Positions 20,769 through 38,790 of a stretch of 64,000 nucleotides of DNA are shown piece after piece. Position numbers and translations under genes: made by a program. Where the stretch lies: the sequence record KX130862; one strand, 5' to 3'. The number at the start of each line of letters is the position of its first letter. Position 1 is the stretch's first letter. This stretch comes from Shigella phage SHFML-26. The notes under the pieces were generated by a model that ran no database searches, was not told the origin of the DNA, and worked only from the letters and a program-made list of their open reading frames with translations.

Positions 20769-20798
20769 ATAGTACCACAGAGGAACGGTCTTGTAAAC
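20769..20798 (-). promoter_or_regulatory. T4-type early promoter with conserved leader
   Basis: GTTTAC, 18 nt, TACTAT, then conserved leader ACAACTATCAACTA and GGAGGA SD before the ATG near 20740. Confidence 0.55.
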
Positions 20799-20800
20799 AA

Positions 20801-21115
20801 CTAAAAGAAACTTCTTTCACAATTTTTTCCACTGAACCAAGCGCTCACTGCTTTCTTAGTCTCAGGAGCGGTGTTATCCATAAACCATTCAAAGGCAGCC
20901 TTTTTATGATTCTGGAGGGCTTCTCGGGCTTTAATCTGCTCACGGTCTATTAACACTAACATATGAGCCTTTCTTGTCACCATGGGCTTCTTATGATTTT
21001 TTGAATACTCCCAATCATTTGTCCATCGCATTGTCGTTGCGAACTGAAATACTGCTTCTTTAATTTTAGTTTCGTAAATTTCACGAGCCTTTGAGTATAA
21101 CATCATTACCTCCAT
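20801..21115 (-). CDS. hypothetical protein
   Basis: 104-aa ORF. Confidence 0.5.
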   Translation of the reverse strand: MEVMMLYSKAREIYETKIKEAVFQFATTMRWTNDWEYSKNHKKPMVTRKAHMLVLIDREQIKAREALQNHKKAAFEWFMDNTAPETKKAVSAWFSGKNCERSFF

Positions 21116-21205: not shown

Positions 21206-22174
21206 TTATTTCAGAAGAGTAACCTCAGCGATTTCTTCCCAACCGTTTTTGTCGGTCATAATAAAGTCAGCAAGATAAAGAGCAGTACGCAGTGAAACAT
21301 TACGTAAACGGTTAACATTGACTTTCATCCATGATAATGCTTTATAAGTTTCTTCATCAGAAAGACCGCGCTTTTGCATCATGTCGGTTGAAAGAATAAC
21401 ATCTTCAACCCTGACCATAATTTCTTCATTAGTGTGAACACCCAAATCTAAATAAACTGAGCGGGACACTAATGCTTGTAAATGTGGAGCAAGTTTAGTA
21501 CCACGGTCTAATTCGCGGTCAATATCAACGTTTGTGATAAAAACAATTGTTCCTTTAAATTCAAACTCACGGTCAATGCCTTTTTCTTCTAAGTAAGAAG
21601 ATGCAGTGCTCCAGCAGACTTTACGGGTCTCTCCAGTGTCCAGAGCAGCTTTCAGAAGATTAAGAATGTCCATATCAGAGAAAACATCCACATCATCAAT
21701 CAAAAGGACAGAATTCTCTTCACGATTATTCCAAAGCTGCTCATAAAGACCAATACCAGAGATTTTACCATTAATGCTTTTATATTCAATGTATCCAATA
21801 TCATTTGCTTTATTCAAAGCTTTATCTAAAGAATACGTTTTACCAATACCCGCCGCACCAGAGATAATTAATGAACGAATGTTTCCGTTAATAATACCAT
21901 TCGTCATCATTCCCATAACATTAAATCTTTTATTAATGCGGGTTTTCATATCTTCATACGATTCTTTAACTTCTTCAACTTTTACACCATCATATGAAAT
22001 GTCTGATTTGTAAACCCAAACACCGCGACGCTTACCGTCAATTTCAACAAAAACTTTACCATCTCCTTGTGCATCTACCGGAGCATTATCTGGGAACCAT
22101 TCGCCTAAGAGCTCAAAAGTTCCAGAGATTTCTTTACCGAAGTAGATACCCTTATTGATAGTTACAGTTTTCAT
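21206..22174 (-). CDS. P-loop NTPase (AAA-like ATPase)
   Basis: Walker A GAAGIGKT and Walker B VLLIDDVD; own early promoter upstream; track ORF 21206..22186 begins at TTG, ATG at MKTVTINKG preferred. Confidence 0.7.
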   Translation of the reverse strand: MKTVTINKGIYFGKEISGTFELLGEWFPDNAPVDAQGDGKVFVEIDGKRRGVWVYKSDISYDGVKVEEVKESYEDMKTRINKRFNVMGMMTNGIINGNIRSLIISGAAGIGKTYSLDKALNKANDIGYIEYKSINGKISGIGLYEQLWNNREENSVLLIDDVDVFSDMDILNLLKAALDTGETRKVCWSTASSYLEEKGIDREFEFKGTIVFITNVDIDRELDRGTKLAPHLQALVSRSVYLDLGVHTNEEIMVRVEDVILSTDMMQKRGLSDEETYKALSWMKVNVNRLRNVSLRTALYLADFIMTDKNGWEEIAEVTLLK

Positions 22175-22208
22175 TTTATTCTCCAAATCCGTATTAGTTG
22201 ATAGTTGT

Positions 22209-22238
22209 ATAGTACCATAAAGCTTTATGCTTGTAAAC
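22209..22238 (-). promoter_or_regulatory. T4-type early promoter with conserved leader
   Basis: Same module upstream of the ATPase gene (start 22174). Confidence 0.55.
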
Positions 22239-22261
22239 CGTTTTGTGAAAAATTTTTGAAA

Positions 22262-22288
22262 TAAAAAAGGGAGCCCGAAGGCTCCCTA
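22262..22288 (-). terminator. intrinsic terminator (UUCG-loop hairpin plus U-tract) after the nucleotidyltransferase-like gene
   Basis: Minus strand AGGGAGCCUUCGGGCUCCCU followed by UUUUUUAUUU. Confidence 0.65.
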
Positions 22289-23302
22289 TCATTTATAATA
22301 ACTTCGGTGGTTTTCAAGATAGACCTTCTCAAGGAAGTCATCCCAGAAACCCATGTCTACTTTTTGCTGCATACCGTTCTTAGAAGCTTCAGTAGATGCT
22401 GCTTCTACTTGATCGACCACATCTTCCAAAAACTCTTGAACCGTTTTAAATGGATGTTTACCCAACTTCACGTCGAGAATAAATGGAGCGTCTTGAAGTG
22501 GATAAATCAAGTCGCCAGTTTTGTAAATTTCCAATAGTTGGAGTCCACCACGACAAGCATGGCTCAGAGCTTTCCAGTCAATACCTTCATTGGCTTCAGC
22601 CTTACGAGCGCGTTCACCATATTCAGCATCTAATTTGTTCAGTGACTGCTTAAGCTCAATAAGAGAAAGAGTTGTCTGATATTTACGACCCAACACTGTG
22701 TAAAACGTCTGTGGGCCTGTTTTCTCATGATTATGGAACACCCATTCACAGAATTCGTTTTCTGGAAGACGATGCTTAATATCTTCAACTTTAGTGCGAC
22801 GCTGCTTAATAGAACCATCTTCTTGATAATCAATCCATTGCTCAGGGATTTGATTAACTACTTTCAATACATCACGTAATGCAGCCAAACGAGAACCCTT
22901 GACACCGTATTTAGAAGCTTGCTTACGGACATATCCTAAATAGGATTTCATGTTAGTCGTATAAAAACGAGAACGGTTGTCTTGAATAAACTTCCATACA
23001 TCAGGCAAATCGGATTTAACCACTAGTTCAGGTGGAGTGTGAAGCATATCCAACGCTACAGTTTCACCATCTGCTGCTAATTTAAAGAAATACTTAAGAC
23101 TGTATAGTTCATGGTCAATATCATCTTTAGTGTTTTTAGATGATGTGTTGTTAGTGTTTTTACTCATATGCTCTTTAACATTTCCGATAAGAATATCGCG
23201 AGCAGGAGGAACAAAGATTTCTTTAAAATCTACATCAGATTCTGGGGTAGAAGTTCCATAAAGATGACTACCAAAATAGCTTTTCATTACTGTTTTCATC
23301 AT
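22289..23302 (-). CDS. nucleotidyltransferase-fold protein (Pol-beta superfamily-like)
   Basis: 337 aa; N-terminal GS-x10-DxD motif (GSHLYGTSTPESDVDF) with a further acidic cluster (KDDIDHE) about 35 residues later; followed by an intrinsic terminator. Confidence 0.6.
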   Translation of the reverse strand: MMKTVMKSYFGSHLYGTSTPESDVDFKEIFVPPARDILIGNVKEHMSKNTNNTSSKNTKDDIDHELYSLKYFFKLAADGETVALDMLHTPPELVVKSDLPDVWKFIQDNRSRFYTTNMKSYLGYVRKQASKYGVKGSRLAALRDVLKVVNQIPEQWIDYQEDGSIKQRRTKVEDIKHRLPENEFCEWVFHNHEKTGPQTFYTVLGRKYQTTLSLIELKQSLNKLDAEYGERARKAEANEGIDWKALSHACRGGLQLLEIYKTGDLIYPLQDAPFILDVKLGKHPFKTVQEFLEDVVDQVEAASTEASKNGMQQKVDMGFWDDFLEKVYLENHRSYYK

Positions 23303-23760
23303 TCAGCCTTATATTCAATAACAGGACATACTTTAGCTTTACGAGCTTTTAAAAATTCAACGATAATCGATTTCTTGGGTTGAATAGGAGGTAAACCTTT
23401 ATACGCCCTATCAATATTTTCTACGTGTAAAGCATAATCCTTTTTCCATTTATAATCTTTATATTTTTCACGCAAATGTGCAGGAATAACAAATGAACCG
23501 ATAATAAGTAAAACAACCAAAAGCGCAAGTATAAATGCCGATGGAAGAAGAGTCCATAAACTACCGAAAATAAGCCAACGTTGTAGGCTTTCTGCACAAA
23601 TAATTGTTAGCCCTACGAGTATAGCACATCCAAAAATAGAAACGAAAAATGTAGGAATGGCAATAGACCAAAAATATGCGCATAGTGTCTTAGGTCGTTG
23701 CCATTCATCGTTAAATAGTTTAAATAATTTATAGTGCCAAGAGTTTTCATTAATAATCAT
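23299..23760 (-). CDS. integral membrane protein
   Basis: 153 aa with three predicted transmembrane helices. Confidence 0.55.
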   Translation of the reverse strand: MIINENSWHYKLFKLFNDEWQRPKTLCAYFWSIAIPTFFVSIFGCAILVGLTIICAESLQRWLIFGSLWTLLPSAFILALLVVLLIIGSFVIPAHLREKYKDYKWKKDYALHVENIDRAYKGLPPIQPKKSIIVEFLKARKAKVCPVIEYKAE

Positions 23761-37126: not shown

Positions 37127-37433
37127 TTGCGGCAACCTTGTCGGGGTTCTACCTGCTAAGGCAAGTGTTTGTACGAAACGCCGGGATTCGAACCCGGTTA
37201 TTAAGCAGTTGACGCTACTCAATATTTTTAAAAGGCCATATCTCGACCATATCCGAACGTTCCGTCAAAAACGCTACTCGGCTTATGGCAAAGATATTTC
37301 CTCGAATCGATAATTCGGTGCGCCGTTTCTGTTGTGATAGTAAAGAGCCAGAACATAGTAAAACTGTGGGAGGAACTATACTCCAGGGAACATCAGTCCG
37401 ACGACTTGCCGGTAGCGACCCGGCTTCTTGTCT
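37127..37433 (-). ncRNA. putative small stable RNA region (like T4 species 1/2 RNAs rnaC/rnaD) downstream of tRNA-Arg
   Basis: Non-coding stretch with a tRNA-like T-arm (CCGGGTTCGAATCCCGG on the minus strand near 37181-37197) and strong hairpins; position matches the stable RNAs after tRNA-Arg in T4; boundaries approximate. Confidence 0.3.
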
Positions 37434-37435
37434 GG

Positions 37436-37508
37436 TCGAGGCAGTAGGGATCGAACCTACGACCCAGGACTTAGAAGGTCCTTGCTCTTCCTTCTGAGCT
37501 ATGCCCCG
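37436..37508 (-). tRNA. tRNA-Arg (anticodon TCT)
   Basis: Minus-strand cloverleaf: acceptor CGGGGCA/TGCCTCG, T-loop GGTTCGATCC, anticodon loop CTTCTAA. Confidence 0.8.
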
Positions 37509-37511
37509 TAA

Positions 37512-38177
37512 TTAAAATTTCATTTTTCGACCTTTAAACCATCCTTCTGGAATTGGGTCAGTTTTCTTAATACGTTTAGAAACTTTTTCATCTAATGAAT
37601 GAATCCACATCATACCAAATTGGGAATTCTTTTCACCTTTCTGGTGATTATTTTTAGCGTGAATTTCTTTCATTTTATTAATAGTTTCATCTGAATGGGA
37701 CTTACCCAAGAAAGATTTAGTATTTGAAAATTTCTCTCTATACTTAGGATTATCCCAAAGCTGTTTAAACCTTTCTGAACCCATTTTACGATATTTTTCT
37801 TTAAGGTCTGGGTCGTTCTCAAATCTGGTTTTAAAAGCGGCAGCTCCTTTTAAGGAAGCTTCTTTCTTTTTATCCAAATATTCTTTAGTGTTTAAATGGT
37901 CCCAACCACCTTCACCACCTAATTTCAAATTATAAACATCAGGGCGCTTTAAAAACTCTTCAGTCACAATATTCTTTTCTGACTCAAACATAGAGGTTTT
38001 ATCGTCAAAGAACTCTAATATTTCTTTAGAAAAATTTTCTATACCATACTTATCTTGGGCTCTTTTTAATAATTTACCAGAACCCATATATCCATCATCT
38101 AAATTTTCAGTTGAATGGGCGCCTATATAAATTTTATTATTAATTTTATTTGTTATTTTATAAGTGTAATAGAACAT
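37512..38177 (-). CDS. segB: GIY-YIG homing endonuclease SegB-like
   Basis: 221 aa; GIY-YIG module (YYTYKITN...IYIGAHST...GYMGSG); embedded in the tRNA cluster as segB is in T4. Confidence 0.8.
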   Translation of the reverse strand: MFYYTYKITNKINNKIYIGAHSTENLDDGYMGSGKLLKRAQDKYGIENFSKEILEFFDDKTSMFESEKNIVTEEFLKRPDVYNLKLGGEGGWDHLNTKEYLDKKKEASLKGAAAFKTRFENDPDLKEKYRKMGSERFKQLWDNPKYREKFSNTKSFLGKSHSDETINKMKEIHAKNNHQKGEKNSQFGMMWIHSLDEKVSKRIKKTDPIPEGWFKGRKMKF

Positions 38178-38219
38178 AAATATCTCCTATTTCTAAGAGT
38201 ATTTATGTTCTCAAAATAT

Positions 38220-38290
38220 GGCCCTGGGTGGAATTGAACCACCATCTGGCGATTATGAGTCGCTTGCTTGAACCTTCCAGCTACAGGGCC
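38220..38290 (-). tRNA. tRNA-Ile (anticodon CAT, Ile2-type)
   Basis: Minus-strand sequence GGCCCTGTAGCTGGAAGGTT...CTCATAA...GGTTCAATTCCACCCAGGGCCA. Confidence 0.75.
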
Positions 38291-38296
38291 TTGATA

Positions 38297-38369
38297 TGCT
38301 GATTGACGGAATCGAACCGCCGACCTTCTCATTACAAGTGAGTTGCTCTACCTACTGAGCTAAATCAGC
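38297..38369 (-). tRNA. tRNA-Thr (anticodon TGT)
   Basis: Minus-strand GCTGATTTAGCTCAGTAGGTAGAGC...CTTGTAA...GGTTCGATTCC...AATCAGCA. Confidence 0.8.
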
Positions 38370-38376
38370 GAAATTA

Positions 38377-38463
38377 CGGAGGCGATAGGATTTGAACCTA
38401 TGAGTCGCCGGAGCGACTGCCGGTTTTCAAGACCGGTGCATTAAACCACTCTGCCACGCCTCC
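38377..38463 (-). tRNA. tRNA-Ser (anticodon TGA)
   Basis: Minus-strand GGAGGCGTGGCAGAGTGGTTTAATGC...CTTGAAA...long variable arm...GGTTCAAATCC; G discriminator. Confidence 0.8.
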
Positions 38464-38465
38464 AG

Positions 38466-38539
38466 TCTCCGCGGCAGGATTTGAACCTGCGACATTCTGC
38501 TCCCAAAGCAGACGCTCTACCAAACTGAGCTACACGAAG
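38466..38539 (-). tRNA. tRNA-Pro (anticodon TGG)
   Basis: Minus-strand CTTCGTGTAGCTCAGTTTGGTAGAGC...TTTGGGA...GGTTCAAATCCTGCCGCGGAGA. Confidence 0.8.
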
Positions 38540-38550
38540 TAAATTAAATT

Positions 38551-38623
<73 letters not shown>

Positions 38624-38629
38624 AAACTT

Positions 38630-38716
38630 TGGTACGAGAAGTGGGACTCGAACCCACAAGGAAATCATTCCGCAGCATTTTAAGTGCTGTGCCTTTACCA
38701 ATTTGACCATTCTCGC
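38630..38716 (-). tRNA. tRNA-Leu (anticodon TAA)
   Basis: Minus-strand GCGAGAATGGTCAAATTGGTAAAGGCACAGCACTTAAAATGCTG...long variable arm...GGTTCGAGTCCCAC...ACCA (CCA encoded). Confidence 0.8.
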
Positions 38717-38717
38717 G

Positions 38718-38790
38718 CTGGGAATAAAGGACTCGAACCTTTGCATCCTGGAATCAAAATCCAGTGCCTTACCAACTTGGCTAATTCCCA
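38718..38790 (-). tRNA. tRNA-Gln (anticodon TTG)
   Basis: Minus-strand TGGGAATTAGCCAAGTTGGTAAGGCACTGGATTTTGATTCCAG...GGTTCGAGTCC...ATTCCCAG. Confidence 0.8.

Follow-up and report, generated by a model that had tools for sequence, protein, structure and literature searches.

What does a nucleotidyltransferase encoded beside an ATPase contribute to a T4-like phage? The question is raised by two adjacent genes of Shigella phage SHFML-26 (sequence record KX130862), of which a stretch of 64,000 nucleotides, here called the window, was analysed. An earlier note, made from these letters alone, had described a gene for a Pol-beta-superfamily nucleotidyltransferase next to one for a P-loop ATPase in the nrdC-to-rI block, had asked whether the two are T4 nrdC.11 and nrdC.10, and had left several families and substrates in play. 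The window belongs to a Tequatrovirus, that is, a T4-like phage, and the 4.5 kb around both genes are 97-98% identical in nucleotide sequence to numerous T4-like phages of Escherichia, Shigella and Yersinia. Both open reading frames (ORFs) are present on the minus strand, at 22289..23302 (337 amino acids, 39.0 kDa) and 21206..22174 (322 amino acids, 36.4 kDa). Comparison with the annotated phage vB_Eco_NR1 identifies them as the orthologues of nrdC.11 and nrdC.10, respectively, and annotated relatives bear out their placement in the nrdC-to-rI block. The product of the first is 98% identical in amino acid sequence to T4 NrdC.11 and 100% identical to a protein of phage G4498. A Pol-beta nucleotidyltransferase gene thus does adjoin that of an AAA+ protein, as had been described.

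The earlier note held that the family of the nucleotidyltransferase could not be told, which proved too cautious. NrdC.11 matches the Pfam family PF10127 (RlaP, 'RNA repair pathway DNA polymerase beta family') with 44.3 bits, well over the gathering threshold of 23 (E=2.3e-11), along residues 7-135, the nucleotidyltransferase core, which correspond to profile positions 23-142 of 249; in the PHROG database it matches phrog_388, 'nucleotidyltransferase', at E=1.8e-136. When 1.84 billion representative proteins were searched with a profile, 5163 clusters at 50% identity came up with E<=1e-3, the top 150 all aligning over their full length; a second round with a divergent profile mostly recovered close T4-like clusters again. 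All but one of 146 relatives of 32-53% identity match PF10127 as well, with a best E of 2.2e-19. The Pol-beta signature for NTP and metal binding, hG[GS]-x10-DxD, is found at residues 11-25 (GSHLYGTSTPESDVD; G11 S12 ... D23 V D25; window 23228..23272, minus strand). A second acidic cluster, DDIDHE, lies 35-40 residues downstream of it (residues 60-65; 23108..23125, minus strand) and holds a candidate third catalytic carboxylate, D61 or D63. Both elements had been picked out from the translation before, and both hold up across the family: among the 146 relatives G11 is invariant and S12, D23, D25, D61, D63 and D85 are at least 90% conserved, and in five divergent homologues from phages D60, D61, D63 and E65 do not vary. 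In the same 146-sequence alignment Y124, Q128, K131, Y132, G136, R138 and the motifs YG-RA and DWK--HA-R of the C-terminal region are similarly conserved. Because NrdC.11 and its relatives match PF10127 and share these motifs, membership of the RlaP family is secure as far as sequence can tell, and the catalytic residues are under strong constraint. NrdC.11 is, very probably, an RlaP-family RNA 3'-end nucleotidyltransferase.

What such an enzyme does is known for two bacterial members of the family from a preprint of December 2025. RlaP of Pseudomonas fluorescens (Pf) and P. aeruginosa (Pa) adds one or two nucleoside monophosphates (NMPs) to the 3'-OH of RNA, prefers Mn2+, shows little specificity for the nucleoside triphosphate (NTP) and is inactive on 3'-phosphate ends, on DNA and on protein, E. 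coli proteins included (10.64898/2025.12.29.696909). When both ends of a cleaved tRNA are offered, PfRlaP and PaRlaP favour the 5' half, at its 3' end, over the acceptor 3' end; in total RNA the bacterial enzyme also labels full-length tRNAs and species of rRNA size (10.64898/2025.12.29.696909). Treatment with RlaP before ligation partly restored aminoacylation of a tRNA missing one anticodon-loop nucleotide, the 3'-OH product directly suits 5'-phosphate ligases, and RlaP has been proposed as an antidote to 'smart' ribotoxins like RloC, which cut and then excise a nucleotide (10.64898/2025.12.29.696909). The same study explicitly places T4 NrdC.11 in cluster 5 of the PF10127 sequence similarity network (SSN), as a member 'of unknown function', and reports a crystal structure of PfRlaP in which three carboxylates cluster in the nucleotidyltransferase core and a C-terminal helical domain forms a cleft (10.64898/2025.12.29.696909).

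NrdC.11 resembles these enzymes in matching PF10127 over the nucleotidyltransferase core, in keeping the catalytic G[GS], DxD and D residues, and in an N-terminal nucleotidyltransferase followed by a C-terminal region that is predicted to be largely helical. It differs from the characterised RlaP, which belongs to SSN cluster 1a, in its assignment to cluster 5, in its greater length, in a variable beta-rich insertion at residues ~155-209 and in a C-terminal part that lies outside the Pfam match. Our AlphaFold2 model, built from an alignment of 18 sequences of 49-99% identity, gives the C-terminal part as mostly helical, with a predicted local distance difference test (pLDDT) score of ~75-89. 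The 250-residue helical domain of the earlier note therefore stands as to its helices and needs amending at the insertion (window 22676..22840), which is modelled as beta-rich at a similar pLDDT of ~75-89 within the otherwise helical region. This insertion is hypervariable in length and sequence in the homologue alignment, and it could be a substrate-specificity element. Searches of a copy of the PDB with the single NrdC.11 sequence, a 5-sequence profile and the 146-sequence profile found no relative there.

The Pol-beta signature occurs in other enzyme classes, and two further readings of NrdC.11 start from it. The first, among the options of the earlier note, is a CD-NTase/cGAS/OAS-like enzyme, which would undermine host immunity by producing or changing a nucleotide second messenger. 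The one point in its favour is the generic Pol-beta motif, which is common to all these families; the likeness to CD-NTase, cGAS and OAS enzymes goes no further than this superfamily signature, and substrate class and genomic context both differ. No CD-NTase, SMODS, Mab-21 or OAS model matched NrdC.11 in Pfam at E<=1, scans of PADLOC and NCBIfam gave no match for either NrdC.11 or NrdC.10, and the significant match is to RlaP, whose tested members act on RNA 3' ends rather than on pairs of NTPs. With RNA-repair genes as the neighbours of its relatives, described below, a signalling enzyme is barely credible here.

In the second reading NrdC.11 works like MNT/KNTase enzymes and nucleotidylylates a small molecule or a protein, for example a host HEPN or toxin RNase that would be neutralised by AMPylation. 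Minimal nucleotidyltransferase antitoxins do act by nucleotidylylating toxins, PF01909 (NTP_transf_2) aligns weakly across the motif, and 3 of the 146 relatives match Polbeta or NTP_transf_2. The PF01909 match, however, scores 13.5 bits against a cut-off of 21 and covers only residues 10-27, no HEPN-like partner gene adjoins nrdC.11, and neither E. coli proteins nor DNA are substrates of bacterial RlaP. We consider protein modification very improbable. The class I/II Pol-beta nucleotidyltransferases that add CCA or poly(A) share chemistry with RlaP: like them, RlaP adds to an RNA 3'-OH without a template and with the same catalytic motif. RlaP nevertheless adds only one or two nucleotides with little base specificity, and neither PF01743 nor any related model for CCA-adding enzymes in Pfam matched NrdC.11.

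We then compared the gene neighbourhoods of 80 viral and 80 bacterial or archaeal loci that encode NrdC.11-like proteins, clustering the neighbouring ORFs. Seven of the 80 viral loci, from distant phages with ~40% identity to NrdC.11, carry an Rnl1 ligase gene (PF09511, E=9e-27) 1.1-1.6 kb upstream of the NrdC.11 homologue; the same seven have a gene for an HD and P-loop (AAA_33) kinase 2.6-3.1 kb upstream and a second kinase gene ~4 kb upstream. In Sinorhizobium phage phiM19, a gene annotated as '2'-5' RNA ligase' ends ~3.3 kb upstream of the homologue. Recurrent neighbours in the 80 cellular loci, confirmed with Pfam, are RtcB (8 loci), Pnkp (7-8), Hen1 (4-5), Ro60/TROVE (5) and PrfH (3), and by ORF clustering at least one RNA-repair gene lies within 8 kb in 16 of the 80; a more sensitive BLAST search adds locus L137 for Pnkp and Rnl1-like matches in loci L092 and L137. 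The NrdC.11-like clade has an RNA-repair neighbourhood, and in adjoining RtcB, Pnkp/Hen1 and Rnl1 the relatives of NrdC.11 are again like bacterial RlaP.

Other genes recur in these neighbourhoods too. Nine distant T4-like loci encode an SPFH/Band-7 protein (PF01145, E=1.4e-15; for example L061:1330-2253) 4-9 kb upstream of the NrdC.11 homologue; this recurrence may be mere synteny. SPFH modules were reportedly proposed by Burroughs and Aravind in 2016 as scaffolds in RNA-repair systems. Genes of NAD salvage are found as well: one for a NadR-like cytidylyltransferase with Nudix lies within a few kb of NrdC.11 homologues in 11 distant loci (for example L087:14061-15131), and one for NAMPT near homologues in nine distant loci (for example L051:13701-15179), with no locus common to the two subsets. 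Two contigs filed under bacteria (L089, a Bacilli metagenome-assembled genome, and L090, a 178-kb contig of Flagellimonas marina) encode NrdC.11 homologues of 52-53% identity among T4-like neighbours, namely thymidine kinase and NadR-Nudix; they are probably phage sequence binned or assembled with bacterial genomes.

How might such an enzyme serve a T4-like phage? T4 encodes Pnkp, Rnl1 and Rnl2, the ligases of T4-type phages are 5'-phosphate ligases and not RtcB, and RloC is an anticodon nuclease with wobble-excising activity. In the sequence of events that we infer from the bacterial homologues, a host ribotoxin would first cut a tRNA, for example in the anticodon loop, and the phage Pnkp would strip the 2',3'-cyclic or 3' phosphate to leave a 3'-OH. 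NrdC.11 would then add one or two untemplated NMPs to this end through a metal site formed by D23, D25 and D61-D63, so that nucleotides trimmed by 'smart' anticodon nucleases such as RloC would be replaced and Rnl1 or Rnl2 could reseal a full-length tRNA. What the present analysis itself saw is family membership, the conservation of the catalytic residues and the RNA-repair neighbourhood of the clade. A close known counterpart is the T4 pathway of Pnkp (PseT) and Rnl1 that counters the anticodon nuclease PrrC. It operates in the same type of phage, and NrdC.11 is proposed as an extra step in its heal-and-seal scheme; the classical pathway, however, consists of two enzymes without NrdC.11, which would matter only where a lesion involves loss of nucleotides, as happens with RloC. 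Rnl1 and NrdC.11 are spread over the phage genera in almost the same way: counted by genus, and uncorrected for shared ancestry, GenBank phage records with an Rnl1 homologue and with an NrdC.11 homologue number 637 and 609 for Escherichia, 287 and 286 for Klebsiella, 81 and 81 for Shigella, 78 and 75 for Aeromonas, 69 and 69 for Acinetobacter, and 56 and 56 for Enterobacter.

In this scheme NrdC.11 would be an accessory, non-essential counter-defence enzyme. A genome-reduction study of T4 deleted the segment nrdC.11-mobD.3, so under laboratory conditions the phage can do without nrdC.11 (PMC9825161). For jumbo phages, a review of 2021 names RlaP as the most prevalent phage nucleotidyltransferase and predicts that it refills nucleotides lost to RloC-like nucleases before ligation (PMC7824862). 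On our analysis we lean, modestly, towards a specific role of NrdC.11 in refilling broken tRNA ends as an accessory counter-defence. Action on RNA or tRNA 3' ends had been one of the substrates suggested at the outset, with counter-defence as a plausible function, and it is this suggestion that the evidence favours.

Several observations weigh against this role. Addition of NMPs has been demonstrated for the bacterial Pf and Pa enzymes only, and untemplated addition of low specificity gives the correct nucleotide in only a fraction of molecules (10.64898/2025.12.29.696909). The C-terminal two thirds of NrdC.11, with the variable beta-rich insertion, do not align to the PF10127 model. AlphaFold and Foldseek had been put forward as a check of the fold; the C-terminal part could be modelled, as described above, whereas residues 1-66, the catalytic core, have a pLDDT below 50 in the model from our shallow alignment, and a Foldseek search of this low-confidence model against the PDB gave no match at E<=0.001 (best E=0.23). 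An RNA-repair neighbour is found in a minority of loci only (7 of 80 viral, 16 of 80 cellular). The nrdC-to-rI block, in the window as in its annotated relatives, is free of ligase and kinase genes, and the T4 genes for RNA ligase and Pnkp are located elsewhere in the genome than nrdC.11. The matching genus counts may only reflect that both genes are common in Straboviridae. Finally, we know of no RloC-type nuclease that restricts T4 in its usual hosts.

The same separation from repair genes bears on a further possibility, that NrdC.11 is an RNA 3'-end nucleotidyltransferase with some other target, mending trimmed tRNA 3'-CCA ends or adding short tails that alter the stability of host or phage RNA at takeover. 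Unlike bacterial RlaP, nrdC.11 shares no operon with a ligase gene in T4-like phages, nor is it clustered with that for Pnkp; in phage CHD16UKE1, Rnl1 lies at ~86 kb and NrdC.11 at ~167 kb. The labelling of full-length tRNAs and rRNA-sized species by bacterial RlaP, with its little NTP specificity, would fit a different target, as would the distinct, larger C-terminal region of the NrdC.11 clade outside the Pfam model and the presence of a phage tRNA cluster in the window. Yet the recurrent neighbours of the clade are ligases and end-healing enzymes rather than RNA decay factors, and of the two tRNA ends it is the 3' end of the 5' half, not the acceptor 3' end, that RlaP prefers. Another RNA end as the target is possible, although we find it doubtful. 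Related to this is the thought that the T-even NrdC.11 clade has diverged in function from the enzymes of bacterial RtcB operons, turning to another RNA end (the tRNA acceptor or specific host RNAs) or recruiting the MoxR-like NrdC.10 as a helper. We regard such divergence as unlikely; if it were true, it would be a phage counter-defence step not yet described.

The tRNA cluster comprises eight genes at 37433..38790 on the minus strand (Arg-tct, Met-cat, Thr-tgt, Ser-tga, Pro-tgg, Gly-tcc, Leu-taa and Gln-ttg) and represents the tRNA region of T4-type phages. It may matter here, phage tRNAs being another way around tRNA-targeting defences.

The adjacency of the two genes had been taken to imply that nucleotidyltransferase and ATPase work together. 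We therefore asked how far their linkage extends. An NrdC.10 gene lies within 10 kb downstream on the same strand in 4 of 4 viral loci with at least 90% NrdC.11 identity, in 9 of 12 at 75-90% and in 18 of 22 at 60-75%, whereas at 50-60% only 3 of 18 loci have it and below 50% none of 24. Where the genes are linked, the gap between them ranges from 112 to 2284 bp. Taken from the side of NrdC.10, all 9 loci at 66% identity or more have NrdC.11 nearby and none of 34 at 58% or less. The adjacency is confined to T-even-like phages and Acinetobacter T4-like phages, and no NrdC.10 homologue was found in the 80 cellular NrdC.11 loci.

The stretch between the two genes was compared in the same light. 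Directly 3' of the nrdC.11 stop, at 22258..22287 on the minus strand, is a G+C-rich hairpin resembling an intrinsic terminator (AGGGAGCC-UUCG-GGCUCCCU followed by a T-run); phages NR1 and KAW1E185 have a terminator annotated at the same place after nrdC.11. Between this hairpin and nrdC.10, at 22209..22237 on the minus strand, a site matching the consensus of a T4 early-type promoter, GTTTACA-17-TGgTACTAT with an extended TG, supports at the level of a consensus match the idea that the ATPase gene has its own early promoter. On the other side, an ORF of 153 amino acids with several hydrophobic stretches (23299..23760, minus strand) overlaps nrdC.11, its stop codon falling within the nrdC.11 start (ATGATGA). 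It is without a Pfam match, and several relatives label the gene at this position 'membrane protein'. Because of this overlap, the sequence suggests that nrdC.11 is translationally coupled to the 153-amino-acid ORF and not to nrdC.10.

From the loss of linkage in distant homologues and the terminator and promoter between the genes, we conclude that the adjacency is inherited synteny in the phage hyperplastic region and not a conserved functional pair; NrdC.10 is probably not a partner of the nucleotidyltransferase. The implied pairing is thus unsupported: whichever gene one starts from, the adjacency is lost in every more distant homologue, and the 80 cellular loci lack it altogether. A two-gene module, in which the AAA+ ATPase would, for example, remodel damaged tRNA or a host nuclease or deliver it to the transferase, has the further difficulties that the two genes lie ~91 kb and ~19 kb apart in two viral contigs that carry both, that three loci at 82% NrdC.11 identity have no NrdC.10 within 10 kb, and that NrdC.10 homologues of Vibrio phages adjoin topoisomerase, clamp-loader, dUTPase or helicase genes instead; nrdC.11, for its part, overlaps the membrane-protein ORF upstream. 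We hold such a module to be quite improbable.

NrdC.10 itself was called a P-loop ATPase from two motifs, and both are there. The Walker A motif GAAGIGKT (residues 106-113; 21836..21859, minus strand) has G106, A107, G109, G111, K112 and T113 invariant in 26 homologues, and the Walker B motif VLLIDDVD (D160, D161; 21686..21709, minus strand) has D160, D161 and D163 invariant; the sensor-1 residue N215 and the arginines R238, R291 and R296 are likewise invariant among homologues. The predicted structure (mean pLDDT 89.7) begins with a beta domain (residues ~1-61), from which a long linker helix leads to an AAA+ alpha/beta core, with a beta-hairpin insertion before sensor 1, and a helical lid. 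Foldseek returned many AAA+ proteins at E ~2e-5 (ORC/Cdc6, NSF, dynein, E1 helicase, Hda, PspF, RFC and RuvB), all Pfam AAA matches fell below their cut-offs, and the strong PHROG match, phrog_1250, is of 'unknown function'. With Walker A and B, sensor 1, the arginines, and core and lid all in place, NrdC.10 is by motifs and model a genuine AAA+ ATPase, though one that fits into no specific family.

The MoxR and sigma-54-activator clade (NorQ, CbbQ, DmpR and FlrC) is the closest to NrdC.10, though not specifically so. Assignment to the MoxR family was rejected, as we found neither a MoxR-type profile (AAA_3/AAA_5) nor a vWA-domain partner. Nor did we keep the label of clamp loader found in some records, for which there are only weak PHROG matches (E ~1e-4, residues 89-179). 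The neighbours of distant NrdC.10 homologues are heterogeneous, among them baseplate-like proteins, QueE, a topoisomerase subunit, dUTPase and exonuclease; in an E. coli jumbo phage the homologue sits among unrelated small ORFs, and the neighbourhood comparison found no recurrent partner gene.

Some details of the locus bear on its annotation. The nrdC.11 gene is recorded here at 22289..23302 on the minus strand, as an RlaP-family Pol-beta nucleotidyltransferase on the PF10127 and phrog_388 matches. Its start may instead be the second ATG at 23299, giving 336 amino acids, because most homologues have that length and because ATGATGA overlaps the stop of the upstream ORF. For nrdC.10 (21206..22174, minus strand; an AAA+ ATPase of 322 amino acids by its Walker and sensor motifs and predicted structure), the ATG at 22174 is preceded by a GGAG Shine-Dalgarno sequence, and a longer form from a TTG at 22186 is unlikely on that ground. 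The promoter-like element TTTACA-17-TACTAT with extended TG occurs twice on the minus strand, at 22209..22237 before nrdC.10 and at 20769..20797 before an nrdC.8-like ORF; as a sequence motif, the duplicated element would fit a nrdC-to-rI block made up of several early transcription units that are independent of one another. Downstream of nrdC.10, a NrdC.9-like ORF of 104 amino acids (20801..21115, minus strand) matches the Pfam family DUF7203 (E=3.9e-15). Public records of both orthologues are widely misannotated, as 'thioredoxin', 'putative HNH homing endonuclease', 'processivity clamp loader', 'FleQ', 'RarA' or 'XRE-type DNA-binding protein'; the first of these labels has apparently been carried over from the name of the nrdC gene.

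Matches of nrdC.11 and nrdC.10 to nucleotidyltransferase and AAA ATPase domains were already noted in 2006 (PMC1524935). The family assignment of T4 NrdC.11 and the repair hypothesis are in the literature, and the window adds no new kind of system; the two genes are known in kind, and the interest lies in the role of NrdC.11 in the phage, a question that has been posed before. For annotation, a by-product of practical use is that many GenBank records of both genes carry wrong labels. T4 is where RNA repair was discovered, and it encodes in NrdC.11 an RlaP homologue. If NrdC.11 restores nucleotides removed by wobble-excising tRNases like RloC, the heal-and-seal of Pnkp and Rnl1 would gain a third, 'fill-in' step, and this would explain how phages beat nucleases that were thought to be repair-proof.

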